This document shows positions 28,240-55,610 of a stretch of DNA of 64,000 nucleotides, piece by piece. Each line of letters begins with the position of its first letter. The stretch's first letter is position 1. The notes under the pieces are model-generated. The model had not been told where the DNA came from and searched no databases. It saw only the letters and a list, made by a program, of their open reading frames with translations. Origin of the DNA: an uncultured Acidobacteriota bacterium (GTDB taxonomy: Bacteria > Acidobacteriota > Vicinamibacteria > Fen-336); the NCBI GenBank assembly GCA_963720545.1, contig OY970399.1, forward strand, positions 4,000,001-4,064,000, read 5' to 3'. The translations under genes were made by a program, and so were the position numbers.

Positions 28240-28245
28240 CCGGGG

Positions 28246-39913: not shown

Positions 39914-41488
39914 TCACCCCAAATCCACCCCTTTTTCGTCAAACAACACACGCTTGCCGGAAGCGGCGTCGCGTGCTGCCGGGGTGATGATGGCTCTCGA
40001 CCCTACATGCAGGGTGCGGCCAGCCCGAAGTGCCTGGCGCACATCGTCTTCGCTGACGAAATCGAGGAGCGGCCGGGCGGGGGGCGGGGCGGGAGGGGCC
40101 TTGGCTGTCGTGGCGCCGCCGCCCGCGCCCTGGTCACGGTCCTTGGCAAAGGCCAGGCGCTTCACGTTCAGGAGATGCAACGGCGTGATGTTGTCCGAGG
40201 TGATGTTGCCGGCGTGGGCGCCGCAGCCGAGGCTCATGGCCGGCGGCAGCGCGGTGGTGTAACCCGTCGCGCCCATGGAGGTCTGGGTGTTGGCGACGAT
40301 GCGCGACGCCGGCATGGCGGCCGCGAAGTCGCGGGCGATGGCCGGATCGCTGCAATGAATGCCGCTGGTGTGGCCGGTGCCGCCGAAGCGCAGCAGCTGG
40401 ACGCAGCGCTCGACTCCTTCGCGCCAGTCGCGTACCACGTAGAAAGCGAGCACCGGGCAGAGCTTCTCGATCGAGAGCGGGTGGTCGCGGCCGACGCCCT
40501 GGAGGCGGGCCACGAGCAGGCGCGTGCCGGCAGACACCTCGATTCCGGCGCGGGCGGCGATGAAGGCTGCCGGCTTGCCGACGATTTCCGGGTTGGCGAG
40601 GCGCTGGGCGGTCACCACCACGCGCGCGACGGCCGCCGCTTCCTGCTCGTTCAGGATATGGGCGCCGCAGCGGCGCAGCTCGGCGAGCGCCTGTTCGGCT
40701 ACCGCCTGGTCGCAGACGAGCGCCTGCTCCGAAGAGCACAGCGTGCCGTAGTCGAAGGTCTTGCCGGCGACGACCTGCGCAACCGCCGCGGCCGTGTCGG
40801 CGGAGCGGTCGAGGTAGACGGGCACGTTGCCCGGACCAACGCCATACGCCGGCCGGCCCGAGGAATAGGCCGCGCGCACCAGGCCGGTGCCGCCGGTCGC
40901 CAGGATGACCCCGGTGAGCCGCGACTTCATCAGCTCCTGCGTGCCCTCGAGGCTCACCGTGTCCATGCAGACGAGCCCACCTTCCGGCAGGCCGGCGCGG
41001 GTGCCGGCTTCGGCCATGATCCGCACCGTTTCCATCACGCAACGGGTTGCCGAAGGATGCGGGCTCATCACCAGCGAGTCGCCGGCCTTCACGGCGATGA
41101 GCGCCTTGTAGATGGCGGTCGAGGTGGGGTTGGTGCACGGCACGATCGCGGCCACGACGCCCATCGGCTCCGCGATCTCGACGATGCGGTTTTCCTGGTC
41201 CTCGCGCAGGATGCCCACGGTGCGCATCGGCTTGATGTAGTCGTGGACAGTGACCGCCGCGAAGCGGTTCTTGACGGTCTTGTCGGCGACGTTGCCGAAG
41301 GTGCTCTCCTCCTGCGCCAGGCGCGCGAGCGGCTCGGCATGGGGCGCCACCGCCTCGGCCATGGCGGCTACGATCGCGTCGATCCGCTCCTGCGAAAAAG
41401 CGGCCATCAGGCGCTGCGCGGCATGCGCGCCGGCGACCAGGACGCGCGCCTGCTGGACCGAGCGAAGGTCCTGATCGTTCAAGGACAT
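39914..41488 (-). CDS. CoA-acylating aldehyde dehydrogenase (EutE/PduP/AdhE-N-like)
   Basis: [49 protein letters not shown]. Confidence 0.9.
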
Positions 41489-41580: not shown

Positions 41581-42612
41581 ATGAAGGTTGGTCGCAGGTT
41601 CGCCGCACCGCTCGCCGTTTCAGCCCTCGCCCTGGCCGCCGCGGGCTGTGGCAAAGGCTGCAGCCGTGCGAAGGAAGTCAACGACCTTTCGGTCAGCGTC
41701 ACCGCCAACCGGCCGCAGGTGCCGATCGAAAGCGCCCTCGAAGTCACCTACACGTGGACCACAGGTCCCGCGTTCAAGAAGCTCGACAAGGACTATCGGG
41801 CGCTCGTGCACTTCAACGACCCGAAGGGCAACCTGTTGTTCGCTGCCGACCACTTGCCGAACCCCACGACGAAGGATTGGGAACCGGGCAAGACCTACAG
41901 CTACACGCGCACCGTGTTCGTGCCGACCTTCCCCTACATCGGGCCGGTCGACATCCGCCTCGGCCTCTATCCCGAAGGCAAGGGCGAGCGCGTCGCTCTG
42001 CAGGGGGAGGACGTCGGCCTGCGTGAATACAAGGCCGGGCGCCTCGAGTTCCTCGACCGCACCAAGAACATCTTCCTCGTCTACAAGGACGGCTGGCACA
42101 GCCCCGAGACCTCGCCCGACAACCCGAGCCTGGAGCGCACCTGGACCGAGAAGGATGCGCTCGTCTCGATGAAGAACCCGAAGAAGGACATCGTCATCTA
42201 CATCGAGGCCGACACCAACACCAAGGCGTTCACCAAACCGCCGACGCTGACGGTCTCGGTCAACAACAAGTTCGGCGCGATCATCCCGGTGGAGAACTCC
42301 GAGGTGTTCCTGAAGAAGGTGCGCGTCAAGGGCGAAGACCTCGGCACCGACGAGTGGGTGGACCTGCGGCTCACCATGAGCGAGGGCTTCGTGCCCAAGG
42401 CGCTCGGCTACAACAGCGACGACCGCGAACTGGGCCTGCTGGTCTATCACCTGCACGTGGCCGAGGCCGACAAGCTCGGCGACCTGGCGAACCTCGGCGT
42501 GCTCGAAGCGGGCCCGGTCACCATCGCGCCGCGCGTGGCGCCGGCAGCCGCCGCCGCGGCGGCCACGCCGCCCATGGCCATGGCCATGAAGGCGAAGCCG
42601 AAGACCAACTAG
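41581..42612 (+). CDS. Hypothetical lipoprotein, beta-rich
   Basis: SD GAGAGG; lipobox AAGC; strong coding-like codon usage; DDRELG motif. Confidence 0.7.
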   Translation: MKVGRRFAAPLAVSALALAAAGCGKGCSRAKEVNDLSVSVTANRPQVPIESALEVTYTWTTGPAFKKLDKDYRALVHFNDPKGNLLFAADHLPNPTTKDWEPGKTYSYTRTVFVPTFPYIGPVDIRLGLYPEGKGERVALQGEDVGLREYKAGRLEFLDRTKNIFLVYKDGWHSPETSPDNPSLERTWTEKDALVSMKNPKKDIVIYIEADTNTKAFTKPPTLTVSVNNKFGAIIPVENSEVFLKKVRVKGEDLGTDEWVDLRLTMSEGFVPKALGYNSDDRELGLLVYHLHVAEADKLGDLANLGVLEAGPVTIAPRVAPAAAAAAATPPMAMAMKAKPKTN

Positions 42613-43652
42613 CCTTTAGCCTTCAGCTCCAGGACCGCGTGCAGCACCACGCGGTCCGTGCGTTTGCCGGCCGGCAGCCGCACCTCGATGCCGGTAGGCG
42701 AAGTCACGGGGCCCGCGGGCCCGTCGATGACGATCGAAAGACGCAGGCCCGCCCCCGCAACCAGCAGCGCCTGCGGCACGTCGATCACCGCGCGGCGCCG
42801 GACCTCGAGCCGGCCGTCGTCGCCGCTGTTCGCGAGTGCCTCGTCGAGGCGCGCTTCGGCGCGGATCGACAGCGGCGCCGTCGTCATCATGGCAACGCCG
42901 AGCGCGGCGGCGCGCATCGCTTCCAACTCCCGGTTCACGTCGAGCTGGGTGCGGGTCGTGACCGGCTTCAGCGTCGTGCTGCTCTCGCTGGCCTCGGCGA
43001 ACTCCAGCGGCGCGGCGCCAGCCGGGATCGGGATCGTGGGCGGCGGCAGGTCGTCGTCCGGGGCCGCCATCTTCTCGTGGATCTTCTGCAGCGCCAGCTT
43101 GGAGATCGCCTTCAGCGTCTCGAAGACGCCGAGCCCATGGAGCGCCGCCGCCTCGAAGTAGCTGCGGCCCGAGCGGTTCAGGGTCTCCTGCAGGTTCTCG
43201 ATCGGCACCGTCGTCCGCAGGTCGCGCTTGTTGTACTGGAACACCAGCGGCACCGAGTCGAGCGTCATGCCCATCTCGCGCAGGTTGTCCTCGAGGCTGC
43301 GCAGCGATTCGACGTTCGCGTCGCGCGCGGCCTCCTGCGAGTCGGCGACGAACACGATGCCGTCCACCCCGCGCAGCACCAGCTTGCGGGTGGCGTTGTA
43401 GAACACCTGGCCGGGCACCGTGTAGAGCTGGATGCGCACCCGCATGCCGCCGATGTTGCCCACCTCGAGCGGCAGCAGGTCGAAAAACAGCGTTCGGTCG
43501 GTGTCGGTCTCGAGGCTCACCATCTCGCCGCGCGACACCTGCGCCGTCTTCTTGTGGATGTGGAGGAGGTTGGTGGTCTTGCCGCAGAGCCCGGGACCGT
43601 AGTACACGATCTTGGCGGACGCCTGCATCGTCGTGTAATTGAAGAACACCAT
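42609..43652 (-). CDS. MglA-family small GTPase with C-terminal extension
   Basis: KIVYYGPGLCGKTTNL, DRTLFFD, LYTVPGQVFY, VADSQ, QYNKRDL. Confidence 0.9.
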   Translation of the reverse strand: MVFFNYTTMQASAKIVYYGPGLCGKTTNLLHIHKKTAQVSRGEMVSLETDTDRTLFFDLLPLEVGNIGGMRVRIQLYTVPGQVFYNATRKLVLRGVDGIVFVADSQEAARDANVESLRSLEDNLREMGMTLDSVPLVFQYNKRDLRTTVPIENLQETLNRSGRSYFEAAALHGLGVFETLKAISKLALQKIHEKMAAPDDDLPPPTIPIPAGAAPLEFAEASESSTTLKPVTTRTQLDVNRELEAMRAAALGVAMMTTAPLSIRAEARLDEALANSGDDGRLEVRRRAVIDVPQALLVAGAGLRLSIVIDGPAGPVTSPTGIEVRLPAGKRTDRVVLHAVLELKAKG

Positions 43653-43726
43653 TTGGGTTGTAGGCGGAGTGTAGCGCGGCTGCTCGCGCTTTGGCGAAGG
43701 CGGTGTGAGCCGCGTTATGCGGCGGT

Positions 43727-44209
43727 CTAGAAGCTGACGCCGGCGCCGATCGAGAAGCGGCCGTCGAGCTTGATCGGCGGGTTGCCCGAGAGGCTCAGCC
43801 GCCGGTACTCCGCCTTCAGCACCAGGATGCTCGCGGTCTTCACCTTGACGCCGCCGAACACCGCGGTGAGGAAGCCGTTGTCGGTGATGCCGCCCGGCAC
43901 GCTCTGGCGGAAGACGCCGGCGCCCGCGCCGGCGTAGGGCTGGATCATGCCGGTGGGCGGCGCCACCACGGCGCTCGCGGTGAAGGCGGTCATGGCGGTG
44001 TCGAGCGACTCGCCGCTGACGCGCGAGGCCTCGCCCTCGAAGCTCACCACCGGCACCAGGCTCGAGGTGAGCGCGACGCCGTAGGCGCGGCCCCAGTTCT
44101 CGCCGGGACGCGGCGCGCCGACGAACACGGTCAGGTCGCCCGCGGTCGTGTCCTGGATGTAGCCGAGGCATAAGGCCGCGGTCAGGATCGCGATTGCTCC
44201 CTTGCGCAT
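43727..44209 (-). CDS. Outer-membrane beta-barrel protein
   Basis: Signal peptide, PYAGAGAG, amphipathic strands, C-terminal Phe (GVSF). Confidence 0.75.
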   Translation of the reverse strand: MRKGAIAILTAALCLGYIQDTTAGDLTVFVGAPRPGENWGRAYGVALTSSLVPVVSFEGEASRVSGESLDTAMTAFTASAVVAPPTGMIQPYAGAGAGVFRQSVPGGITDNGFLTAVFGGVKVKTASILVLKAEYRRLSLSGNPPIKLDGRFSIGAGVSF

Positions 44210-44230: not shown

Positions 44231-44470
44231 CTAGTCGATGGCGACGCGGCGGCCGCTGCGCTTTGTGCGCGCCGCCGCTCGCGGCGTTCGGCCGGCTTCC
44301 GCCTGGGCCGCTCGTTCCATCCGTTCCAGCTGCCAGCGGCACATCATGACGATGCCTTCGAGCACCTGCTTGCGCAGCGCCTGCAGCTTGTCCCTGTCGA
44401 TGCCGGCATCTTCGAGCAGCTCCGACAGGACGCAGCACGCCTTGGTGCTGTTGCCTCGCCTCGCAGCCAT
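44231..44470 (-). CDS. Small helical hypothetical protein (79 aa)
   Basis: ATG overlaps the upstream ATPase stop (TGATG); SD GGAGG; amphipathic helix. Confidence 0.7.
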   Translation of the reverse strand: MAARRGNSTKACCVLSELLEDAGIDRDKLQALRKQVLEGIVMMCRWQLERMERAAQAEAGRTPRAAARTKRSGRRVAID

Positions 44471-45648
44471 CAAGCCTCCTTGCCCCCGAACCGCACTCTG
44501 AGCACCTGGTCGACGAGCGCCGCGCTCGTCACCGTGCGGCCCGCGATCGAGCGGGGCAGGGTCACGTGGCGGCGCTGGTTGTCCACCTGCACCACCAGGT
44601 CGTCGGCCTTGGTGAACACGCTGAGCCGGTCTTTCTGCGCGAACGGCAGATGGATTGCCATCACGTAGGTGCCGCGCTCCTTCCTGATCTCGATTGGCCG
44701 GCCCTTGAAGAAAGATTGCGACGGGTCGCGCTTGCCGAACACGGCCTTCGCCATCTCGTCGAGGTTCGCAACGCCGACCATCTCGCGATCGAAGAGGCGC
44801 GACTCGAAGAACGGCACCGGCTCGAACGACTCGCGCGCCTCGCTGAGGTAGCCCTTCTGGATGTCGAACCAGCGGTCGAAGTAGGGCGAGCGCGCCTCCT
44901 CCGGCAGGATGCGGTTCGCGACCACGGCGTCGACCGGAAAGCCGAACAGGCTGAGGTAGGTGTAGAGGCGCTGCGATTCCTTGATGACCATGCCCTCGGG
45001 GTTGAGGACGATGCGGATCGAGCTCGTCTCGGGATCCTGCAGCATCGGCCCCATGCCCTCGAGCTGCTGGTAGAGCGCCGCCACCGCGCCGAACACGTCG
45101 TCGGTGGGGATCGGCATGTCGGTCATGCGCTGCGCCACTGGCCGCACCGAGCGCACCACCGTGCGCTGGATGGGGAAGATGCGCGTGAAATAGAAGTTGA
45201 GGATGTCGGGGACGCCGAGCAGGCGGATGGTTTCGCCGGTGGGCGCGCAGTCGACGATGATGACGTCGTAGCGGCCGCTGGTCGCGAAGGCGCGTACCCG
45301 CAGCAGGCTGAACAGCTCCTCCATCCCCGGCAGGATCGCCATCTCCTCGGCGACCGCGTCGGCGATGCCGCGGAAGGTCATGAAGCGGGTGAGCCACTCG
45401 TGGATGGTGCCCCAGCGCTTCGCCAGCTCCTCGTTGACGTCGATCTCGACCGCGTCGAGCCGCTCCTCGACTTTCACCGGTTCGGCGCCGAGCGCCACGC
45501 CGAGGGCGTCGGCCAGGCTGTGGGCCGCATCGGTCGAGACCACGAGGGTGCGGTGGCCGAGACGCGCGGAGCGCACGGCGGTGGCGGCCGACAAGGTGGT
45601 CTTGCCGACGCCGCCCTTGCCGGAATAGAGGATGACCCTCATCGTCAT
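44470..45648 (-). CDS. ArsA/Get3-family ATPase with C-terminal HSP20/alpha-crystallin-like domain
   Basis: GKGGVGKTT, STDAAHSL, PGMEE, DCAPTGET, LNPE, ANR; beta-rich tail YVMAIHLPF...DDLVVQV...RRHVTLP. Confidence 0.88.
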   Translation of the reverse strand: MTMRVILYSGKGGVGKTTLSAATAVRSARLGHRTLVVSTDAAHSLADALGVALGAEPVKVEERLDAVEIDVNEELAKRWGTIHEWLTRFMTFRGIADAVAEEMAILPGMEELFSLLRVRAFATSGRYDVIIVDCAPTGETIRLLGVPDILNFYFTRIFPIQRTVVRSVRPVAQRMTDMPIPTDDVFGAVAALYQQLEGMGPMLQDPETSSIRIVLNPEGMVIKESQRLYTYLSLFGFPVDAVVANRILPEEARSPYFDRWFDIQKGYLSEARESFEPVPFFESRLFDREMVGVANLDEMAKAVFGKRDPSQSFFKGRPIEIRKERGTYVMAIHLPFAQKDRLSVFTKADDLVVQVDNQRRHVTLPRSIAGRTVTSAALVDQVLRVRFGGKEA

Positions 45649-46775
45649 CGTCGGCGCTCCGCCGGGAACATCTCGCGCGCCAGTGCGTCGAGCCCGCGCA
45701 GGTCGTGGATGTCGGTGTCGCCTTCCGCCACCGCCACCACCCGGCCGCCGCCCTCGGCCGACAGACGCGCGAGCGTCTTGCGGGCGCCCTTTGCGAGCGC
45801 CTGTTCGTCGCGGAAGGCAGCGGCGAGCCGCGCGCGCAGGTCTGTGGGGAGAACCGCGGCCGCCGTGCCCCGGCCGCGCGCGGCGCCGCTCGCGGGGTCC
45901 TGGTGGACGCGGTTGGCGACGAACGTCACGAAGGGCATCTTTTTTTCCCGCAGGCGCTCGTGAAAGTAGAGCGCCTCCATGAGCGCCGCCGGCGAGGGGC
46001 CGCAAACCACCACGAACCCCGACTGCGGGTCGCGCAGCAGCGCGAACACGCGCGCGGCTCTTTCCTTGAATCCATCGTACATGCCCTCGAACGCCAGGAA
46101 GAACTCGGACAGCTCCTGCAGGAAGGCGAGGCCGATGGCACGGTCGGCGAGCCGCAGCGCCATGGCTCCGGTGCGCGTCGCCACCTTGAAGGTGAGCTTG
46201 CCGGCGACGAAGTAGGGGCGCAGGAAGAAGCGCAGGATGCCGGTATCGAGGAACGACAGCATGCGGTCGGGCGCCTCGAGGAAGTCGAGCGCATGCCGCG
46301 TCGGCGGCGTGTCGAGCACGATCAGGTCGAAGCGCTTCTCGGCGCGCAGGGCGAGGAGCCGTTCCATGGCCATGTACTCCTGGCTGCCGCCGAGCGCCGA
46401 GGACACCTCGACGTAGAAACGGTTCCGCAGGATGCGGTCGCGCGCCGCGGCATCGGGTGCGTGGCGCGAGACCACCTCGTCGAAAGTCCGGCGGGTGTCG
46501 AGCGCCATCGCATGGAGCGATCCCTTCGCGCCGAAGCCGCCGAGGTCGAGGCGCCGGGGCGCACCCTCGAGCCGGTCGAGGCCGAGGCTCGTCGCGAGTC
46601 GCCGCGACGGGTCGATGGTGCAGACGAGCACCGTGCGCCCCAGGCGAGCCGCCTGCAGCGCGAGCGAAGCGGCTAGTGTGGTCTTGCCGACGCCGCCGGC
46701 GCCGCACACGACGAGCACCTTGCGCGCGTCGAGCGCAGCGGCCAGCGCGGTGCGCCCGGAACCGGTGCCGCTCAC
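45645..46775 (-). CDS. ArsA/Get3-family ATPase (Rv3680/BagB-like)
   Basis: CGAGGVGKTT, TIDPSRRLA, GSQEYMAMERL, DTPPTRHALDFL. Confidence 0.85.
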   Translation of the reverse strand: MSGTGSGRTALAAALDARKVLVVCGAGGVGKTTLAASLALQAARLGRTVLVCTIDPSRRLATSLGLDRLEGAPRRLDLGGFGAKGSLHAMALDTRRTFDEVVSRHAPDAAARDRILRNRFYVEVSSALGGSQEYMAMERLLALRAEKRFDLIVLDTPPTRHALDFLEAPDRMLSFLDTGILRFFLRPYFVAGKLTFKVATRTGAMALRLADRAIGLAFLQELSEFFLAFEGMYDGFKERAARVFALLRDPQSGFVVVCGPSPAALMEALYFHERLREKKMPFVTFVANRVHQDPASGAARGRGTAAAVLPTDLRARLAAAFRDEQALAKGARKTLARLSAEGGGRVVAVAEGDTDIHDLRGLDALAREMFPAERRR

Positions 46776-47704
46776 AGCCCGCCCTGTTCCGACAAGCGGT
46801 CGGCGAGCGCCTCGAGCTGCGCGCGTCGCGACGGCATCTCATAGAGGTAGGGCAGGCGCAGGACGTCGTCGAAGGCGGCGCGCAGCCGCTTGTCGTAGAA
46901 CTGCGTGAGGCGCCGCCGCCTGATGTTGTGGCGGGCGGCGCGCAAGGCGCCTCGAAGGGGCACGCCGGGAGCGACGCTGCCACCAGCGCCGGCGGCGAAC
47001 AGCGCCAGCACTTCCTTTTCCTGGGCGGCCGTGAAGCGCCGCTCGTGGCAGGCGTTGAGGAACAGGCCCGCCGTTTCGATCCGCAGGTCCGCCGAGAGGT
47101 CGCGCGCGAGCTGCACCGCTTCCACCGCCGCCATCTCTTCGGGGATCGCGACCAGGGCTGTTGCGGTCCGCTTGCGGTCGCGCAGCAGCTCCAGGATGCG
47201 GCGCGCATTGCTGCCGATGGGGCCGAGGGGCGCCACGCGCAGCGCGGCCTGCGGCGCCTTCAGCAGGTACAGACCATGGCCGGTGGCCGGCGCATCGAGC
47301 ACGACGAGGTCGTAGCGCGGCTGCAGCGTCATGATCTTGCCGAGCGTCATCAGGTCGTCGAGGCCGGGGGCCGCGGCGAAGAAGCGCCGGTAGATCGGGC
47401 TGGCCAGGATGCGCCGCGAGAACATCGAGAACTTCACCACGTGGCGCACGTAATCGTCGAGCGCCTCTTCGGGATCGATGTTCATTGCGAAGATCGACGG
47501 CGCCACCTCGATTTCGCGGTGTCCGACGGGCGGCGCGTCGAAGTAACGCGCCAGCTCCACGGGCGCGTCGACCTCGGCGAGCAGCGTGCGCTTGCCGCGG
47601 CGCGCGGCGAGCACCCCGAGGAGGCTCGCCACCAGGCTCTTGCCGACTCCGCCCTTGCCGGTGAGGATGACGAGTCGCTTCTCGAGCAGGGCGTCAAGGT
47701 TCAC
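46772..47704 (-). CDS. ArsA/Get3-family ATPase (Rv3679/BagA-like)
   Basis: TGKGGVGKS, APGLDDLMTLGKI, DAPATGH, PEEMA. Confidence 0.85.
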   Translation of the reverse strand: MNLDALLEKRLVILTGKGGVGKSLVASLLGVLAARRGKRTLLAEVDAPVELARYFDAPPVGHREIEVAPSIFAMNIDPEEALDDYVRHVVKFSMFSRRILASPIYRRFFAAAPGLDDLMTLGKIMTLQPRYDLVVLDAPATGHGLYLLKAPQAALRVAPLGPIGSNARRILELLRDRKRTATALVAIPEEMAAVEAVQLARDLSADLRIETAGLFLNACHERRFTAAQEKEVLALFAAGAGGSVAPGVPLRGALRAARHNIRRRRLTQFYDKRLRAAFDDVLRLPYLYEMPSRRAQLEALADRLSEQGGL

Positions 47705-47730
47705 GGACGGAAAGGATAACGTGTGGGCTC

Positions 47731-49119
47731 ATGCGCCGGGGCTCGCCGTCTTCCTCGTGGGTCCTTCTCACCGTCGCCCTGCTCGGCCTCGGGGTGCGCA
47801 TCGTCGGCCTGGACGCCTGGGGCACCTTCGACACCGAGGTGCAGAAGGCGTGGTCGGTGCGTGCGGCGCAGGGACTCGCCGACATCTACGGCCCCTCGGA
47901 TCGCGACCTGGCCGCGTACGCGAGCACGCACGGCGGGGCATGGGCGCTCGTGAGCGGCGCAGCGCGCTTCCCGCGCACCGAGTTCCTGTGGGGCGAGGCG
48001 CGCTACTTTGTGGACTATCCGCCGGGCAGCATCGTGGTGCTGGCGCTCGAGGGCAAGGCATACCGGCTGCTGCGCCCGGAGATGCCGAACAAGGCGCTCT
48101 TCAACACGGTCATCAACATCGGGCCCCTGCTCGCGAGCCTGCTGATCGCCTGGCTGCTCTGGCTCAGCGTGCCGCCCGGTAACGGACAACGCGGAATCGA
48201 AACGGCGCGCGCCGCCGGCTACTGGCTGAACCCGGCCGCGATATTCGCGGCGCCGTTCCTCGGCTACCCCGACCCGATCTTCTCGGTGTTCGGCGTCGGC
48301 GCGGTCCTGGCATTGGCGCGCGGCGCGCTTCCGCTGGCGGCGGCGCTCGGGGTGGCCGCGACTCTCATCAAGCCGCAAGGCGTGCTGCTGGCGCCCGTGA
48401 TCTTCGGCCTGCTGGCGCGCCGGGGCTCGGCAGCGGCCTGGTGGCGCTCCCTGGCCGCTGGCGCCGCGACTGCAACTGTGGTGCTCTCGCCGTGGTGGCT
48501 CAGCGGCCACTTGTTCTCGGCGCTCGACGGCTTCCGCCGCCCCTTCGGGCAGGGCACGCTGGCACCCCTCGGCCTCAACGTCTGGTGGGCGGCGGGCTAC
48601 GTGGCCGACCGGCTGGCCGGCGACACTTCGGGCCTCGCGCGCATCTGGACGATCGACGCGTTCACGCAGGCGAGCGGCGTCGATCCGCGCATCGTCGCCA
48701 GGATCGCGCTCGTCGGCGCGTCGCTCGTGATGTTTCTTTGGAGCTATCGCCGCCGTCTCGAAGGCGAGGGTGCCCTGGCCCTGGCGGTTATCGTCATGGT
48801 GCACACCTACGCGCTCCTCTCGACGAGCGTCCACGAAAACCACACGTTCCTCGCCGTGGCGTTGGCGCCGCTCCTCTTATTCTCGGTGCCGTGGGCGCGC
48901 ACCGTGCTTGCCGCAACCTCGGCATTCCTCGGCCTCAGTCTGTTCTTCGCCGCCGGCCTCGGCCGTCGGGTGACGCACTTGCGCAGGATCGAGGACCTGC
49001 GCTTCCAGGCCGGCTTCGACCCCACAGTGGTCACCGCGCTGCTGCACGTGGCGCTCGTTGCCTTCCTGTGGCTGCTGTTGGCGCGGGTCAGCGCCGGGCG
49101 CGGTGGCGCCGAGCGTTAA
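47731..49119 (+). CDS. Polytopic membrane protein, GT-C-fold glycosyltransferase-like
   Basis: About 10 TMs; VDYPP, LNPA, IKPQG and VHENH motifs typical of lipid-linked-sugar transferases. Confidence 0.6.
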   Translation: MRRGSPSSSWVLLTVALLGLGVRIVGLDAWGTFDTEVQKAWSVRAAQGLADIYGPSDRDLAAYASTHGGAWALVSGAARFPRTEFLWGEARYFVDYPPGSIVVLALEGKAYRLLRPEMPNKALFNTVINIGPLLASLLIAWLLWLSVPPGNGQRGIETARAAGYWLNPAAIFAAPFLGYPDPIFSVFGVGAVLALARGALPLAAALGVAATLIKPQGVLLAPVIFGLLARRGSAAAWWRSLAAGAATATVVLSPWWLSGHLFSALDGFRRPFGQGTLAPLGLNVWWAAGYVADRLAGDTSGLARIWTIDAFTQASGVDPRIVARIALVGASLVMFLWSYRRRLEGEGALALAVIVMVHTYALLSTSVHENHTFLAVALAPLLLFSVPWARTVLAATSAFLGLSLFFAAGLGRRVTHLRRIEDLRFQAGFDPTVVTALLHVALVAFLWLLLARVSAGRGGAER

Positions 49120-49132
49120 CATCCGGAGATCC

Positions 49133-51019
49133 ATGGCAGCGAAGCACTTCCCGCCGCAGCGCTACATTGCGCGTGTCGATGCCATCACCGGCGAAGAGCT
49201 GGGCGGCGCGATCGATCCGGAAGAGCTGCTGGTGCACGCGCACCGCGACCGCCATCCGGTCGAGATCGGCATGCAGTTTGCGGCCAGCCGCCTCATCGAC
49301 ATGACGCGCAACGAGGTTCTCGTGCGCCAGGGGATGCGGCTCATGAACGAGGTGGGTGAGGCGCTCGCCGGCGGCATCGGCTTCGCCACCGGCAGCCCTG
49401 CCTTCGAGCGCCGTGCGCGCCGCATCCTCGGCGTCGTGCAGCGCGAGCACTACTTCCGGTTCCGCGAGCCCACGCATCACTCCGAGCGCGAGGTCCGCGA
49501 ACGGCTCGCGGAGCTGCGTCGGGGAGCGGCCGCGGCACTCAAGCGGCGCGGCCGCAACCCGCGCCTGCAGGTGCTGCTCACCGGCGCCACCGGCTTCGTC
49601 GGCAAGGAGATAGTGAAGCAGGCGGCGGCCGACCCGCGCATCGAGCGGGTGATCGCAGTGGTGCGGACGGAAACCCTGCGCGACCCCAGGACCAGGACGG
49701 TGGTGAAGGTGATCGGGGCCGGGGAGCGCGGCGCCCTGCTGTTGCGGCGGCTGGGCATCGACGCGCGCGCCGCGCGGCGGTTCGAGTTCGTCGCCGGCGA
49801 CATCGAGAAACCCGGCTTCGGCCTGCCGCGCACGACGCTCGCGCGCCTGCGCAGGAGCCTCACGCACGTCGTGCACTGCGCGGCGAGCGTCGCCTTCGAC
49901 GCTCCATACGACGCGTCGTTCCGCGCCAACGTGCTTGGCTCCCTGAACGCGCTGCGGTTTTCGCGCTCGGTGCAGGACACACCCGGCTCGGCGTTCGTCC
50001 ACCACGTCGCGATCGAGACGTCCTACATCCACGGGCGGCGCAAGAGTTCGATGGCCGCCGAGAGCGCGCTGGCGTTTCCGCGGCACTTCTACAACAACTT
50101 CTACGAGCTGACGAAGGCGCTCGCGTCGATCGAGACCGACCGCGCGATGATCGAGGGACTGCGCGTGGCGCAGCTGCTGCCGTCGATAGTCATCGGCGAT
50201 GCCCATACCGGCAACAACCGCGGCGACACCAAGGTGGTGAACGCCCCGATCAACGCCTTTGGCCGGATCAAGGAGATGGTCGATGCCGCCGCCGCGGGCG
50301 GTGGTGCCGCGGAGCGCCTGCGTACGGCGCTCGTGGCGCTCGTCGCCAACTCGTTTCCCGGCGACCCATCGGCAGAACTCAACCTGGTGCCGGTGGACCG
50401 GGTGGTGGCCGGCATCCTGGCGGCGGTGCACCGCCCGGAGGCGATCGGGCGTCGCATCCACCTCGCCACCGACAACCGCATCCGCTCGGCGGACATCGTG
50501 CGCATCGCGCGTGCCGAGCTGGGCGTCAACACGCGGCTCGCCGATCCGACGCTCTACCGCAACCTGACGCTGCCGGTGGTGAAGGCGATCCTGCTGCGCA
50601 TGGACCAGCCGAAGCTCGCGAACGCGCTCGAGAAGCTCGGTACCATCTTCGGCGGCTACAACGAGTGGGGCCAGCCGGTGCACGAAGTGGGCAACGACGT
50701 GCGCATCCTCGGACTCGGCATCCACCGGCCCGACACGCAGGCGGCGTTTCGCATGCTGTGCCGTCACAACCGCTACGTGCAGGAGTACGGCAAGGTCAAG
50801 GATCCGGACGAGATCGCGCGCCGCGAGGCGCTGTGGGCCGCTTTCGTGGACCACGTCGAGCATCGCAGCGGCCGCGAGGCGGGCTTCATGCCGGCACCCG
50901 AGTTCGCGCGCATGCTCGCGGCCGAGATCGACCTCCGCACGTTCACGGCCGCCGCAACGGAAAGGGCGGGACGGTCAAAGCGCGGGCCACAGGCGCGGCC
51001 GCGGCAGCGTTCGGCATGA
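49133..51019 (+). CDS. Extended SDR, fatty acyl-CoA reductase/thioester reductase-like, with N-terminal extension
   Basis: LLTGATGFVGK, VAGDI, VVHCAASVAF, NVLG, YELTK, PSIVIGD, LNLVPVD; SD GGAG. Confidence 0.75.
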   Translation: MAAKHFPPQRYIARVDAITGEELGGAIDPEELLVHAHRDRHPVEIGMQFAASRLIDMTRNEVLVRQGMRLMNEVGEALAGGIGFATGSPAFERRARRILGVVQREHYFRFREPTHHSEREVRERLAELRRGAAAALKRRGRNPRLQVLLTGATGFVGKEIVKQAAADPRIERVIAVVRTETLRDPRTRTVVKVIGAGERGALLLRRLGIDARAARRFEFVAGDIEKPGFGLPRTTLARLRRSLTHVVHCAASVAFDAPYDASFRANVLGSLNALRFSRSVQDTPGSAFVHHVAIETSYIHGRRKSSMAAESALAFPRHFYNNFYELTKALASIETDRAMIEGLRVAQLLPSIVIGDAHTGNNRGDTKVVNAPINAFGRIKEMVDAAAAGGGAAERLRTALVALVANSFPGDPSAELNLVPVDRVVAGILAAVHRPEAIGRRIHLATDNRIRSADIVRIARAELGVNTRLADPTLYRNLTLPVVKAILLRMDQPKLANALEKLGTIFGGYNEWGQPVHEVGNDVRILGLGIHRPDTQAAFRMLCRHNRYVQEYGKVKDPDEIARREALWAAFVDHVEHRSGREAGFMPAPEFARMLAAEIDLRTFTAAATERAGRSKRGPQARPRQRSA

Positions 51020-52017
51020 CCGCGGCACGCAATCGCACTCGTAGAGTCGCGGTGTTGGGAAGCGCCTCGTTCCTCGGCGCCCGCGTGCTGAGGCGGCTGG
51101 CGCGCGAAGCGCGGGATGAGGTGCTGGCGATCGACATCGCGGCGCCGCCGGCGGCGCTCGACGATGTCCGTCACTGCCGCCTCGACCTGACCCGGCCCGA
51201 CGCCGGCCACGACCTGTTGGCGCTGCTGCGCGACGAGGACGTCGGCACCTTGCTCCATTTCGCGTTCTTCACCAACCCGCGCCGCGACACGGCGTACTCG
51301 CACGAACTCGAGTCGATCGGTACGCTCTCGGTGTTCGCAGCGGCGGCCGCCGCCGGCGTCGAGCACGTGGTGATGCGCTCGTTCACCGCGGTCTACGGCG
51401 CGCGCGGCCAGAACCCGAACTTCCTCACCGAGGAGCGAGCCCTGGCGGCGGCGTCCGATTTTGCCTGGCTCCGCGACAAGCTCGAGGCGGAGCAGCACGC
51501 GGCCGCCTGCGCGCGCCGCTACCCGAAGCTGAACGTGACGGTGCTGCGCTTCGCGCCGCTCTTCGGCCCCGGGGTGCAGACCTTCTACACCGGCGTCTTC
51601 GACAAGCGGGTGGTGCCGATCGTCATGGGGTACGACCCGCTGCTGCAGCTGCTGCATCCCGAGGATGCCGAAGGCGCGGTCACGGCCGCGCTCACGCACC
51701 GCCCGCGCGGCGCCGTCAACGTGGTGCCGAGCCGCGCGCTGCCGCTCCTGACGGCGCTACTGCTGGCCGAGAAGGTGCCGCTGCCGGTGCCGCACGGCAT
51801 CGCCTATGCAGGCGCCGACCTCCTGTGGAGCGCGGGCCTGGCCGCCGCGCCTGGCGGTTTCGTCGACTACGCGCGCTTCCTGTTCGTGGCCGACGGCGCG
51901 CGGGCCGCGCGAGAGATGGGGTTCACCGCGCGCCACACGAGCCGCGCGGCGCTCGAGTCGTACCTCGGCTATCGCCATCCCACGCGGCCAGCGCGGCTGC
52001 GCGAGGTCGAGGCATGA
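51016..52017 (+). CDS. NAD-dependent epimerase/dehydratase-like protein (Rv0501-like)
   Basis: VLGSASFLG, SFTAVYGA, LRFAPLFGP, GYDPLLQLLH; paired with the acyltransferase. Confidence 0.75.
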   Translation: MTAARNRTRRVAVLGSASFLGARVLRRLAREARDEVLAIDIAAPPAALDDVRHCRLDLTRPDAGHDLLALLRDEDVGTLLHFAFFTNPRRDTAYSHELESIGTLSVFAAAAAAGVEHVVMRSFTAVYGARGQNPNFLTEERALAAASDFAWLRDKLEAEQHAAACARRYPKLNVTVLRFAPLFGPGVQTFYTGVFDKRVVPIVMGYDPLLQLLHPEDAEGAVTAALTHRPRGAVNVVPSRALPLLTALLLAEKVPLPVPHGIAYAGADLLWSAGLAAAPGGFVDYARFLFVADGARAAREMGFTARHTSRAALESYLGYRHPTRPARLREVEA

Positions 52018-53042
52018 GCCGCGCAAGCCGGGCCAAGGTCGTTCCGATTCGGCCTGTGGGCGGCCGGCGTGCACGCGCCCTGCGGTCGCCAGCGCACGAC
52101 GACGAGGCGGAGGCGCTGCGCTCGCGGCTCCGTGGCCTGGAGCGCGAGTTCGCCCGCGACGGCCTGTTCGTGCGGCTGGCGCGGCTCGTCGAGAAGGGCT
52201 CGGCGGCGAGCAGCTGGGAGAAGCTCGCCCGCGGGCTGTCGGCGGCGTACTTCACCTGGCATTCGGAGACGGTGGACGACTTCGGCTACGACGAGAAGTT
52301 CGCCGCTTCGGTGCGTCCGATGCTCGAGTTCCTCTACAACGTGTGGTGGCGGGTCGAGGCCACGGGCGTCGCGAACGTCCCGGCCACTGGCCCGGCGCTG
52401 GTCGTTGCCAATCACTCCGGGGTGCTTCCGTACGACGGCCTGATGATGCACCTCGCGATCCGCCAGCAGCATCCCGCGCGCCGCGAATGCCGCCTGCTGG
52501 CGCTCGACATGTTCGCGCTCCTGCCGTTCCTCGCGCCCTTGCTGCAGCAACTGGGCGCGGTGCGCGCGAGCCAGGAGAACGGCGAGCGCCTGCTGCGCGG
52601 CGGCGAGCTCGTCGGCGTGTTCCCCGAAGGCGTCAAGGGTGTCGGCAAGCCGTTCCGCCGCCGCTACCAGCTGGCGCGCTTCGGTCGCGGCGGCTTCGTG
52701 CGCCTCGCGCTGCGCACCGGCGCGCCGCTCGTGCCCTGCGCGATCGTCGGCGCGGAGGAAATCCACCCGATGATCGGCGACATCAGCTTCGTCGGCCGGC
52801 CGCTGGGCCTGCCGTTCGTGCCGGTGACGCCGACCTTTCCGCTGCTCGGCCCGCTCGGCCTGGTGCCGCTGCCGTCGAAGTGGTCGATCGACTTCGCCGA
52901 CCCGATCGCCACCGACGGCTACGGGGCGGACGCCGCCGACGACCCGATCCTCGTCAACCGCCTCTCCGAAACCGTGCGCGCGACCATCCAGGAAATGATC
53001 GACGGCCGGCTCGCGCGTCGCCGCTCCGTCTGGTTCGGCTGA
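52014..53042 (+). CDS. Lysophospholipid/acylglycerol acyltransferase (Rv0502-like)
   Basis: VDDFGYD, NHSGVLPYDG, VFPEG, RFGRGGFV, GAEE, PLPSKW. Confidence 0.85.
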   Translation: MSRASRAKVVPIRPVGGRRARALRSPAHDDEAEALRSRLRGLEREFARDGLFVRLARLVEKGSAASSWEKLARGLSAAYFTWHSETVDDFGYDEKFAASVRPMLEFLYNVWWRVEATGVANVPATGPALVVANHSGVLPYDGLMMHLAIRQQHPARRECRLLALDMFALLPFLAPLLQQLGAVRASQENGERLLRGGELVGVFPEGVKGVGKPFRRRYQLARFGRGGFVRLALRTGAPLVPCAIVGAEEIHPMIGDISFVGRPLGLPFVPVTPTFPLLGPLGLVPLPSKWSIDFADPIATDGYGADAADDPILVNRLSETVRATIQEMIDGRLARRRSVWFG

Positions 53043-53048
53043 GGGCCG

Positions 53049-54233
53049 TTAGCGCGGGCCGAGCCGCGTCTCGAGGGTGCGCAGGGCGCCGGCGAGTTGG
53101 CGGGCCACGGCGGAGTGGTGCGTTGGCGCAGGGGCCGAGCGGCGCGCCGCCGCCTTGTTGCGCAGCTTGATGCCGTGGCGGCCCAGCATGCGCGCGAATG
53201 CCAGCCGGCCGGTGCCGCGGAACGCCGCCATCGCCGAGCGATAGCCGTACTGCGCCACCGTGCGCCGCGCCGCGACGCGCATGATGTTGTGGGCGAACAT
53301 GCGCATGTCTTCGCGCCGCGGCTCGATCAGCAGGATGTCCACCTCGGGATGCTCGAGGCGGTAGCGCTCGAGGCCGTATTGCATGCGGCCGTGGAGCGAG
53401 ATGCGCAGCACCTGGTCGAGGACGTAGGTGATGCCCTTGTGGCTCAGCGGACCGCCGAGCAGCGGCCGGCGCGCGTCGTTGCGGATCGGCACGATCGGGT
53501 TGATGCAGATGACCAGGTCGGCGCCGTGGCCGATCGCGAGGTTGACGTGCGCGGTCTTGCGCACACCGCCGTCGACGTACTCGCGGCCGCCAATGCGCAC
53601 CGGACGGTACAGACCCGGCAGCGCCGTCGAGGCCTGCACCGCCTTGGAAATGGGCACGTCGCGCCGGCCGCGGTCGCCGAAGGCCACCGCCTCGCCGCTG
53701 TCGAGGTCGACCGCGACCAGGAACAGCTGGCGCGCCAGTTGCGAGAAGCGGTCGGTGCCGGCCCGTTCGCGAAAGGTGGTCGCCAGGAAATCGGCGATGC
53801 CGGAGTTGTCGAGCAGGCCCGACGGCAGCAGCTCGAAGAACGGCATCAGCAGGTCGTAGGCGCTCTCGCCCTCGCCGCGCATGAGGCGTGCGAGCGTTGC
53901 GCGCAGCAGGGCGGGGGCGCGTGCCGAGCGCCGGGCGATTTCCCGCGTGCCGAGGCGGAAGAGCGGGCTGCCGAGGGCGCCGAACAGCGGGCTGCTGTCC
54001 TCCAGGAGCTCGTGATACAGGTCGCCAGGCGGGATGCCGTTCGCGAGCAGCGAGGTGACGAACGCCCCGCCGCTGACACCAACGTACATGTCGAAGTCGA
54101 GGACACTGCGGTCGAGCAGGTCCTCGAGCGCCCGCAGCACACCGATCTCGTAGACGGCGCCGGTGACGCCGCCGCCCGCACAGACGAGGGCGACCTTGGT
54201 GGGGCGGCTTGGGCGGCTGCGGCGAACGCCCAG
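53049..54233 (-). CDS. Patatin-like phospholipase/esterase (probable CTG start)
   Basis: Frame extends upstream of the listed ORF to KVALVCAGGGVTGAVYEIG; GVSGG nucleophile elbow; YVDGG. Confidence 0.85.
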   Translation of the reverse strand: MGVRRSRPSRPTKVALVCAGGGVTGAVYEIGVLRALEDLLDRSVLDFDMYVGVSGGAFVTSLLANGIPPGDLYHELLEDSSPLFGALGSPLFRLGTREIARRSARAPALLRATLARLMRGEGESAYDLLMPFFELLPSGLLDNSGIADFLATTFRERAGTDRFSQLARQLFLVAVDLDSGEAVAFGDRGRRDVPISKAVQASTALPGLYRPVRIGGREYVDGGVRKTAHVNLAIGHGADLVICINPIVPIRNDARRPLLGGPLSHKGITYVLDQVLRISLHGRMQYGLERYRLEHPEVDILLIEPRREDMRMFAHNIMRVAARRTVAQYGYRSAMAAFRGTGRLAFARMLGRHGIKLRNKAAARRSAPAPTHHSAVARQLAGALRTLETRLGPR

Positions 54234-54237
54234 GAGG

Positions 54238-54666
54238 CTACCGCCGTGTCTTCTTCTGCGCGCCGATGCGGCGCGAGAGCTCGTCGACCTTGCGGGTCAG
54301 CGTCGCGATCTCGCGGCGGCTCGGGATGTTGAGCGCCGCGAGCGTGCGCCTGGCGGTCTCCTCGGCCACGCGCGACACAGTCTTGCGTTCCTTCTCGACG
54401 CGCTCCTGGATGAGAGTGAGGCCGGCGTCGATGCGCTTCAGGGCGCTGCGCCGCTCGGCGATCACGGCGCGGCCGATCGAGGCGATGGCCTTGCGCGCGT
54501 CCACGTGCGAGAGGTTGCTGCGCAGCTGGTGGATGGCGCCCTCAGCCGTGTGCACCGCGGCACGCGCGGCATTTTTCGCGGTGCGGGTGGCCGACTCGAG
54601 CCGAGACGGGGCGGCCTTGCTCTGCGACGATGCTTGCTTCCGTGCGGACTTCCTGCGTGCTGCCAT
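54238..54666 (-). CDS. Phasin-family (PhaI/PhaF-like) granule-associated protein
   Basis: Ala/Arg-rich helices ending in LNIPSRREIATLTRKVDELS; SD AAGGAG. Confidence 0.72.
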   Translation of the reverse strand: MAARRKSARKQASSQSKAAPSRLESATRTAKNAARAAVHTAEGAIHQLRSNLSHVDARKAIASIGRAVIAERRSALKRIDAGLTLIQERVEKERKTVSRVAEETARRTLAALNIPSRREIATLTRKVDELSRRIGAQKKTRR

Positions 54667-54688
54667 GACGTTTCTCCTTTTTCCTTCC

Positions 54689-55318
54689 TTACTTCGGGTG
54701 CGATTGCTTCTTGCGTGGAACGCGCTTCCTGCCGCGCCGCGCCTTTGCGGCTGGCAGGCTGGTTTCGAGCGTGGCGAGGCGCTCCTTGAGGGTGGTGAGC
54801 GACGGCATCACACCGAACTCCTTTTCGCTCGAGGCGACGAGTTCGCCGAGCCGGCGCTCGACCGAGTGCTGCGCGTCGTGCACTGCGCGGCCGGCCGCGG
54901 CAACGATCGCGACGCGCAATGCCGCCGCGTCCTCCAGGCCGAGGCGGCCGCGGGTGATGAGGTCGCCCGCGATGCGCTCGGCCTCGCGGCCCACGCGGGC
55001 GGCGGCGTCGGGCAGCGCCGGCAGCGCCTCGGCACGGCCGGCGGAAGCCAGCGCCAGTGTGATGATGCGCTGCAGGATGCGCTTCGGCAGGGTGTTGGTG
55101 CGGCGCTTGAGGGTCTCGACGAGCGCCGCGCCCAGCACCTGCGAGCTGATGTCGCGGCCGCTGCTGCTGCGCTCGCGGATCGTGAGGTCGGCGCCGCGCG
55201 CCGCCAGCTCGCTGAGCGCCTCGAGGGTGACGTAGCGGCGCTCGTGCAGGTCGTAGAGCTTGCGGTTCGCGTAGCGGACCACGATGCGCTCGGCCGGGAT
55301 GCTGCCCTTGCGCGGCAT
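54689..55318 (-). CDS. PhaR-like PHA-accumulation regulator DNA-binding domain fused to helical phasin-like region
   Basis: VRYANRKLYDLHERRYVTL...GRDISSQVL (PHB_acc_N signature). Confidence 0.8.
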   Translation of the reverse strand: MPRKGSIPAERIVVRYANRKLYDLHERRYVTLEALSELAARGADLTIRERSSSGRDISSQVLGAALVETLKRRTNTLPKRILQRIITLALASAGRAEALPALPDAAARVGREAERIAGDLITRGRLGLEDAAALRVAIVAAAGRAVHDAQHSVERRLGELVASSEKEFGVMPSLTTLKERLATLETSLPAAKARRGRKRVPRKKQSHPK

Positions 55319-55324
55319 GGATCG

Positions 55325-55376
55325 ACCATAACGCACTGCGTCATAGTTGTCAAGAGCGAATGACGCGGCGCGTTAC
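55325..55376 (-). promoter_or_regulatory. Sigma-70 promoter with two palindromic operator-like sites
   Basis: TTGACA (55353-55348)-17 bp-TATGGT (55330-55325); ATGACGC-N3-GCGTTA at 55328-55344 (-) and 55360-55376 (+). Confidence 0.7.
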
Positions 55377-55397: not shown

Positions 55398-55610
55398 TCA
55401 GCGCGGGTTGGGTTCGATCGTCAGCGGTGCGCGCTGGCGGCGGTGATGCTCGAGGCGCACGAACACCACGCCGAGGACGAGCCCCAGGCAGAGCGAGGCC
55501 AACACGACGAATCCGGCGAGCTTCAGCGAGCCGAGCACCACCGACACCAGGTCGAAGGTCGGCTTCGGCACCACGACCCAGAGGATGGTGGGCGGGGGAG
55601 ACGGCGCCAT
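55398..55610 (-). CDS. Small membrane protein (70 aa)
   Basis: Long hydrophobic segment; fills the intergenic gap; extended -10 TGCTAGGCT 7 nt before ATG. Confidence 0.55.
   Translation of the reverse strand: MAPSPPPTILWVVVPKPTFDLVSVVLGSLKLAGFVVLASLCLGLVLGVVFVRLEHHRRQRAPLTIEPNPR

Follow-up and report, generated by a model that had tools for sequence, protein, structure and literature searches.

Why would a bacterium in whose genome no polyhydroxyalkanoate (PHA) synthase is found keep a phasin, a PhaR-like regulator and a patatin-like lipase side by side with acyl-lipid enzymes and three Get3-like ATPases? The question is raised by the genes at positions 44231-55376 of a 64,000-nucleotide stretch of contig OY970399.1 (assembly GCA_963720545.1; hereafter the window) from an uncultured Acidobacteriota bacterium, whose genome is a single contig of 4.09 Mb and 94.8% complete. 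A first-pass annotation of the window had proposed that these genes form one system for a non-PHA lipid inclusion. Comparison with related and distant genomes leads us to a revised form of that proposal, to which we assign a probability of about 0.5: the locus joins two conserved modules, A and B, that likely serve one non-PHA neutral-lipid body. What stands of the earlier proposal is the absence of the synthase PhaC, the way in which the PhaR domain tracks wax ester synthase/diacylglycerol acyltransferase (WS/DGAT) genes, and the repeated placement of the ATPase pair BagA/BagB (BagAB) beside phaR, phasin and patatin genes; what falls is the eleven-gene synteny and the glycolipid option tied to a glycosyltransferase-C-like (GT-C-like) membrane protein.

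Results

The eleven contiguous open reading frames in three tight units that the first-pass annotation had described are confirmed, successive frames being spaced from -4 (overlapping) to +26 bp: an ATPase unit on the minus strand, a unit running from the membrane protein to an acyltransferase on the plus strand, and a patatin-phasin-PhaR-like unit on the minus strand. Public contigs, among them contigs from run X1, which may be the source sample, and from runs X5 and X6, both from other studies, span without gaps the junctions BagA/GT-C, GT-C/short-chain dehydrogenase-reductase (SDR) and SDR/'epimerase' as well as the patatin start, so the gene order is not a mis-assembly. The block is made up of two conserved modules, A (the ATPases and a small protein) and B (the lipid and coat genes), with the GT-C-like gene as a passenger.

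No PhaC was found in the genome with PF07167 or TIGR01836 (the Caulobacter control was positive) or by tblastn with the PhaC proteins of two relatives, nor was a WS/DGAT found with PF03007 in a search that was positive in two of four other genomes; the absence of both, noted at first for the window, thus extends to the single-contig genome. Among 61 genomes (60 relatives and the window genome) PhaC is present in two, one of which (G011; locus L164 on contig C11) lacks both modules and the PhaR domain. Only one of the 46 PhaR-domain genomes of the order carries PhaC and 45 do not, which upholds the earlier view that a canonical phaC does not account for the phasin and PhaR. Queries from relatives found no homologue of FcrA/HMGR-like, ACBP, PHA_gran_rgn or SRPBCC proteins in the genome, and none of the ABC1 type, for which the profile gave two weak matches (E 1e-6 and 4e-5).

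The same picture holds across the phylum. In 201 Acidobacteriota genomes, evenly drawn and at least 90% complete, BagB occurs in 19, PF07879 (the PhaR domain) above its cut-off in 34, a PhaC-like protein in 8, WS/DGAT in 19 and a close orthologue of the window acyltransferase in 6. The PhaR domain is present in 18 of the 19 BagB genomes (3.2 expected) and PhaC in none of them; since 27 of the 34 PhaR-domain genomes lack PhaC, annotation as phasin or PhaR does not imply PHA. In 13 of the 19 genomes, representing nine families, no more than 10 kb separates BagB from phaR, and the distance is about 1 kb or less in 11 of the 18 other genomes of the phylum. Every WS/DGAT genome has the PhaR domain (19/19), with phaR within 10 kb of the WS/DGAT gene in nine, and all six genomes with the acyltransferase orthologue carry BagB. 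Within the BagB genomes, WS/DGAT is found in eight and the close acyltransferase orthologue in six, and none has both.

When 12 distant BagB loci were read gene by gene, phaR or a phasin gene was adjacent in eight (in one across a contig break) and absent in three, and BagAB stands beside a phasin gene in three architectures, exemplified by L199/L201, L186 and L216/L241. L201 (8369-19723) holds BagAB, phaR, phasin, patatin, ACBP, PHA_gran_rgn, ParA, WS/DGAT, an ABC1 kinase and an HMGR/FcrA-like reductase, and by its gene content looks like a very complete candidate wax-ester body locus. In L186, BagA is fused to BagB, and the fused gene is arranged back to back with two gene sets, phasin–SDR–acyltransferase and patatin–phasin–phaR. 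The metagenomic loci L216, L219, L241 and L259 have BagAB back to back with a homologue (E 3e-14 to 6e-6; PF05597 just below cut-off) of the second phasin described below, with phaR close by and, in three of these loci that were read, a ParA gene between; the phasin homology ties this arrangement to granules, if weakly. The twelfth of the distant loci, in G231, has a fused SDR–acyltransferase near BagB together with SRPBCC and ABC1 genes.

As a separate observation, L187 (4073-18623) groups BagAB with two SRPBCC genes, an ABC1 kinase, a fused SDR–acyltransferase, an FAD oxidoreductase, an HMGR/FcrA-like gene and a halogenase-like gene, and akin clusters without BagAB occur in L195, L197 and L203.

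Module B was compared in 37 orthologous SDR regions of relatives, chosen for long contigs, with three paralogous regions excluded. Its order is reductase–[second phasin]–atypical SDR–acyltransferase, facing patatin–phasin–PhaR-like. The second phasin-like gene follows the reductase SDR in 36 of the 37 relatives, which supports the link first suggested between the reductase and acyltransferase and a phasin coat; the gene is lost in the window genome, where tblastn and hidden Markov model (HMM) searches found no second phasin elsewhere and the known phasin alone scored. The atypical SDR and acyltransferase follow in 35 regions and the facing patatin–phasin–phaR set is complete in 25, most misses being contig ends. 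A second, phasin-less SDR–atypical SDR–acyltransferase copy (SDR about 53-59% identity) was seen in L064, L065, L066 and L119.

The first enzyme of module B (49133..51019, plus strand; 628 aa) is an extended SDR resembling thioester and fatty-acyl reductases (PF07993, 111.5 bits). The NAD_binding_4 domain, the Gly-rich loop (TGATGFVG) and the YxxxK motif (YELTK) are all present, with Y324 and K328 invariant in 45 rows, and there are conserved N- and C-terminal extensions, about 140 N-terminal residues of which had no match in a sequence search of solved structures. Of the 55 relatives of the order, 50 have a close orthologue (two of them as contig-end pieces), while the five genomes of other orders gave weak matches alone. 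A role as fatty-acyl reductase is favoured by L118, a Burkholderiales contig in which a homologue with 50% identity immediately precedes a WS/DGAT gene. Judging from its upstream sequence, the reductase gene seems to have its own promoter.

The next protein (51016..52017, plus strand; PF01370), called an epimerase by the first-pass annotation, is probably not one: it has W in place of the catalytic Y (W151), and this replacement is found in 41 of 44 rows, with Y in one. Because of this substitution and because the protein is fused to the acyltransferase in three distant loci (L187, L197 and L203), we read this atypical SDR as the likely partner subunit of the acyltransferase. The acyltransferase itself (52014..53042, plus strand; PF01553, 64.9 bits) has an H-x6-D dyad, H134/D141, invariant in 36 rows. 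It had no PDB match by sequence alone, and its predicted model matches PlsC (5kym), whereas the spacing of its dyad is not HX4D and its TIGR00530 score is 30.5 against 102.95; the DGAT2/DAGAT score is marginal (PF03982, 22.7 with a cut-off of 22, over 93 of 297 positions). Its nearest Atlas clusters are from Myxococcota and Actinomycetota. The family presumably includes mycobacterial Rv0502. Rv0502 is listed only as a conserved PlsC homologue, and glycerolipid acyltransferases are described as using HX4D (PMC10593935; this and the other papers given by PMC number are cited for the accessible part of their text). The H-x6-D enzyme is a candidate neutral-lipid synthase that likely does the job of WS/DGAT.

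Facing these genes are the coat and control genes. The patatin-like lipase (53049..54233, minus strand; PF01734, 97 bits) probably starts at CTG 54233: there is no ATG, GTG or TTG upstream of its Gly-rich loop, the start position matches that of relatives and public contigs show no frameshift. Its motifs GGGVTG, GVSGG and DGG are intact. The phasin (54238..54666, minus strand; PF05597, 32.6 bits, above the cut-off of 28.8) has a helical hydrophobic moment above that of shuffled sequences (z 2.8), while the PhaR-like protein (z 2.1) and a relative's second phasin (z 1.8) are weakly above theirs. The PhaR-like regulator (54689..55318, minus strand; PF07879, 44.7 bits) falls below the cut-off of the PhaR model TIGR01848 (45.8 against 109.45), with the match restricted to its N-terminal domain, and its C-terminal half aligns with the phasin profile (probability 66%, E 5.6e-5). 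The protein may thus combine a PHB_acc_N DNA-binding domain with phasin-like C-terminal helices.

A sigma70-like promoter (55325..55353, minus strand; TTGACA-17-TATGGT) ends 6 nt before the phaR ATG. It is near consensus (one found, 0.3 expected in shuffles) and kept in relatives, and the phaR mRNA is likely leaderless. Two predicted palindromic operators of the form T(A/G)ACGC-N3-GCGT(C/T)A accompany it, one between the -35 and -10 boxes (55329..55343) and one just upstream of the -35 box (55361..55375). The 15-bp palindrome is present in 26 of 26 phaR promoters, flanking the -35 box on both sides in 24 and as one site in two, a presence that follows by construction, as the motif was derived from those promoters; with the window's own sites excluded from the matrix, the window's two copies are the two best-scoring sites genome-wide, the upstream one ranking second, and the double operator is confined to phaR. 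G208 and G152, which belong to another family, carry the palindrome at phaR as well. In PHA producers PhaR forms a feedback loop in which the repressor and a phasin share an operon and the operators lie over the promoter. By analogy, the window appears to keep this layout without a PHA synthase. The palindrome was not found upstream of module A or of the reductase operon, so no shared regulation of the two modules is shown.

The starts of bagA, the reductase SDR and phaR (47704-47731, 49113-49133 and 55318-55330, and relatives) often have a -10-like hexamer 6-10 nt upstream and no ribosome-binding site, which makes leaderless transcripts likely for all three. Between the phaR promoter and an amidase gene, a conserved 70-aa membrane protein (55398-55610) has no Pfam match, and its gene stays when module B is lost.

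Module A keeps the order BagA–BagB–Get3/HSP20–small protein in 38 of 38 fetched BagB loci (two further fetched loci, which hold another ArsA paralogue, were dropped from the count), and BagB is present in 49 of 55 relatives of the order. The first gene encodes a BagA-like ATPase (46772..47704, minus strand; PF02374; NF053622, 105 bits against a cut-off of 400) and the second a BagB-like ATPase (45645..46775, minus strand; PF02374; NF053621, 330.5 bits against 521). Both scores lie below the equivalog cut-offs, and each member of the tandem pair is best matched by its own NCBIfam model; the BagB family profile matches PDB 6bs3_B over the full length (E 1e-107). The third gene (44470..45648, minus strand) encodes a Get3-like ATPase (PF02374, 300.6 bits) with a C-terminal alpha-crystallin (HSP20) domain (PF17886). 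Its P-loop and switch I are intact and its TIGR00345 score is 252, above the cut-off of 135, which the BagA- and BagB-like proteins do not reach. An arsenical pump ArsA was rejected: the ATPases are single-domain and score 48-76 bits (Get3/HSP20 76) on TIGR04291, compared with 650. There is no ars operon in the 64-kb window, and no whole-genome search for ars or PhaA/B genes was made.

The last gene of module A (44231..44470, minus strand) encodes a 79-aa protein with two helices and no Pfam or NCBIfam match, in which a Cys-Cys pair is invariant (16/16) and a C-terminal V/I-x-V/I motif nearly so (15/16). The possibility that it is a phasin was rejected (hhalign probability 0.9), and its hydrophobic moment is weakly above that of shuffles (z 1.1). 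Its terminal motif presumably resembles alpha-crystallin ligands, and we infer that it would be a partner of the neighbouring HSP20 domain. Counting these two genes as part of the system, as was done at first, holds in that they are tied to BagAB and fails to generalize in that they were met outside this order once among the 12 distant BagB loci; they look like an add-on of BagAB found chiefly in this order.

Directly downstream of module A, in the window and in most family-level relatives, are a long MglA/Ras-like GTPase gene and an outer-membrane beta-barrel gene (42609-44209). Two more MglA/Ras-like GTPases are encoded at C1:1.80 Mb and 1.67 Mb, and the one beside module A is shortened to 91 aa in G018, a genome without module A. 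A conserved 343-aa protein with no Pfam match (41581-42612) is likewise found beside module A in most relatives (33 loci), and its gene is retained in genomes without module A.

Conservation of the eleven genes as one synteny block, the lack of which the first-pass annotation had named as refuting its proposal, was seen in none of the 37 relatives, and we rejected it as a conserved unit: no ATPase gene occurs in any of the 37 SDR regions, 28 of which extend at least 5 kb upstream. Nevertheless, the modules look linked. In the seven genomes with both on one contig, they keep their back-to-back orientation at distances of 14, 14, 30, 44, 337, 369 and 397 kb, and the window, where the GT-C-like gene alone lies between A and B, is the compact extreme of this spacing. 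In G005, G011 and G018 the reductase SDR, BagB, Get3/HSP20, acyltransferase and phaR are all absent, with flanking genes kept. In G018 (97% complete), module A is excised between an outer-membrane protein (OMP) gene and a GT2 gene, and module B, on a separate contig, between another GT2 gene and an amidase–ftsK unit, again with the flanks kept, whereas its congener G031 retains BagB, the reductase and phaR. A DnaE2-like second DNA polymerase III alpha gene is often found in the variable inter-module gap (L046:12363-15416 and 25 other loci).

The GT-C-like protein (47731..49119, plus strand), with seven transmembrane-like segments and no Pfam match, is a passenger in this gap and outside the system. 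Its gene is patchy, occurring in 8 of 60 relatives, among them G011, which has neither module, and in none of the 37 SDR regions; in G019 a copy lies about 11 kb upstream of the SDR. We therefore rejected it as a system part, contrary to the first-pass annotation, and a glycolipid product loses its basis. Among the matches listed, 4 of 120 homologues bear the name Gpi18-like mannosyltransferase and 1 of 120 has PF09594.

Discussion

Based on these comparisons we can present a rough proposal for how the locus might work. The case from gene context is good, and each functional step in what follows is inferred. Synthesis would fall to the reductase together with the acyltransferase and its SDR partner, the product being a neutral lipid (wax ester, triacylglycerol or its ether form); the phasin would coat the lipid body; the PhaR-like protein, acting at the two operators, would keep its own phasin–patatin operon repressed until droplets titrate it off; and the patatin would mobilize the stored lipid. 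The BagA/BagB pair would chaperone amphipathic coat proteins, most simply by holding phasin helices. Storage of a neutral lipid made by module B is the step that we consider most probable, and that the ATPases serve the lipid body is nearly as well favoured; phasins as the clients of the ATPases are a tentative suggestion. The whole might even amount to a third bacterial lipid-droplet route, with an H-x6-D acyltransferase and its SDR subunit making wax ester or triacylglycerol independently of WS/DGAT, a phasin/PhaR-hybrid coat and gauge, and the BagAB heterodimer using ATP to load the coat onto the monolayer, which we regard as doubtful.

The most serious alternative is that module B is a neutral-lipid system and the ATPase operon a general chaperone unit, their neighbourhood being historical, through co-inheritance or transfer with loss of the intervening DNA. 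Several results would fit this. The modules are not directly adjacent in any of the 37 relatives; an OMP gene accompanies module A in all but one of 26 f1/f2 loci (25/26); the two modules have no operator in common; and among metagenomic BagB loci (the best 80 of 341, of which 38 were at least 5 kb) the PhaR domain lies near BagB in 6 of the 38 long ones and is absent from the other 32. General chaperoning is also the function favoured for bacterial Get3 homologues (PMC6593721). Against this reading stand the clean excision of the two modules from separate sites in G018, the spacing of about 1 kb or less between BagB and phaR in 11 of the 18 other genomes of the phylum, and the three distinct architectures that place BagAB beside a phasin gene. 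We consider a purely historical neighbourhood unlikely.

Less probable still is that the enzymes remodel membrane lipids, by acyl transfer, ether or alkyl lipid formation and patatin turnover, with phasin-like proteins bound to membrane patches or small lipid pools. The nearest solved fold of the acyltransferase is indeed that of the phospholipid enzyme PlsC, a reductase could supply ether-lipid synthesis (Myxococcus xanthus is described as having an ether-linked fatty alcohol lipid; PMC4048283), and WS/DGAT, ABC1 kinase, ACBP and FcrA were not found in the genome. However, the same phaR–phasin–patatin cassette stands beside WS/DGAT in other classes, a self-repressing PhaR layout would best fit a growing hydrophobic surface, and the module can be lost in its entirety from complete genomes (G018, G011).

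The ATPases might instead be lipid carriers or solubilizers of the body and not protein chaperones, as a ligand the size of a phospholipid accompanies plant Get3d through purification, in a hydrophobic chamber (PMC10248533), and genes for lipid carriers (SRPBCC/START, ACBP) are neighbours of BagAB in L187 and L201. The Get3d paper itself allows for non-specific carry-over, and the recurring neighbours of BagAB are genes for phasins and PhaR, which are amphipathic proteins; we hold this reading to be quite improbable. Finally, a polyester granule from an unrecognized or unassembled PHA synthase, to which the definition of the phasin and PHB_acc_N families on PHA granules, the 25 bits of a relative's second phasin on the PhaE model (cut-off 25.7) and the 94.8% completeness of the genome could point, is very improbable given that neither two models nor tblastn found PhaC and that it is absent from 45 of 46 PhaR-domain genomes of the order and all 19 BagB genomes of the phylum sample.

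Further results weigh against two modules serving one lipid body. The co-occurrence counts include kin and are not independent events; WS/DGAT and the close acyltransferase are both missing from 5 of the 19 BagB genomes, and the mutual exclusion of these two rests on three versus five families. WS/DGAT is itself carried by 8 of 55 genomes of the order. In G014 (99% complete) the ATPases, synthesis operon and second phasin are kept and the PhaR domain is absent. The reductase occurs without module neighbours in seven Thermoanaerobaculia-type loci and in L077, and in comparisons of its predicted model (pLDDT 80.6) terminal thioester-reductase (R) domains of nonribosomal peptide synthetases rank first and rice fatty acyl reductase (FAR) 7eoz eighth. 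For the ATPases, 8 of 20 BagB loci among those listed are of a whiB/PBP type without a lipid-body gene, so BagAB is not obligately a lipid-body factor, and the phenotype reported for mycobacterial BagAB is glycerol and nitric oxide toxicity (PMC10597346).

Each part of the locus belongs to or resembles a known family. With the PhaR/phasin circuit of PHA granules it shares a PHB_acc_N repressor, a phasin in the operon and palindromic operators overlapping the promoter; it differs in the absence of PhaC, in a regulator that is below the PhaR cut-off and has a phasin-like tail, in the coupling to a patatin and acyl-lipid enzymes, and in its own operator sequence. The logic of a reductase plus an acyltransferase is that of FAR and WS/DGAT clusters (PMC10351704; PMC11948995), and in Acidobacteriota the same phaR cassette adjoins WS/DGAT; here, in contrast, there is no WS/DGAT or FcrA, and a PlsC-fold H-x6-D enzyme and an atypical SDR are found instead. 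PMC10351704 has a single mention of a phasin beside WS/DGAT, and the accessible text of these two papers mentions neither ArsA nor patatin. Acyltransferases other than WS/DGAT that make neutral lipids are described as DIESL/TMEM68 (PMC10482677) and cyanobacterial Slr2103 (PMC12223511). DIESL has a fold like that of bacterial acylglycerol-phosphate acyltransferase and makes triacylglycerol inclusions in E. coli, but its dyad is H130/D136, in a comparison made by description and not by sequence (PMC10482677).

The ATPase pair resembles BagA/BagB of mycobacteria (Rv3679/Rv3680; PDB 6bs3) in its tandem arrangement, in the full-length 6bs3_B match and in the same altered BagB P-loop. Unlike that pair it lies below the equivalog cut-offs and is followed by the Get3-HSP20 gene and the small protein, and whereas actinobacterial-type loci lie beside whiB/PBP genes, the window type lies beside phasin and phaR genes. 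The Get3/HSP20 protein recalls the bacterial Get3 proteins with an alpha-crystallin domain (group 6, PMC6593721; Get3d, PMC10248533), with no ars operon in the window, but its nucleotide site is intact, it scores below the NosAFP cut-off, and it is encoded in a BagAB operon with a small partner. Our literature search did not find the combination, although it left subscription journals largely uncovered and so does not show that the combination is unpublished.

What bacterial Get3 homologues do is described as 'currently unclear' (PMC6593721), and the gene context points the search for their function to phasins and lipid bodies; if the reading as a third lipid-droplet route is right, bacterial Get3 proteins would gain a dedicated targeting client. 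Deletion of the sole DGAT of Myxococcus xanthus left triacylglycerol (PMC4048283), and the Atlas cluster nearest to the acyltransferase is commonest in Myxococcota, which would, on the same reading, make this enzyme a candidate for DGAT-independent triacylglycerol synthesis in myxobacteria. For the Acidobacteriota, a phylum abundant in soil, the storage of neutral lipids is described as unexplored (PMC10351704).

Other genes in the window

Elsewhere in the window, a sulfatase gene faces a radical SAM/SPASM gene and a lipoprotein-like gene (26797-30785), and a DUF6600 protein has a long low-complexity tail (1795-3363). An aldehyde dehydrogenase (PF00171) is encoded at 39914-41488. In six related loci the PF00171 gene adjoins a gene for a 103-aa protein (for example L136:17359-17670) that resembles a microcompartment shell protein and is not in the window.

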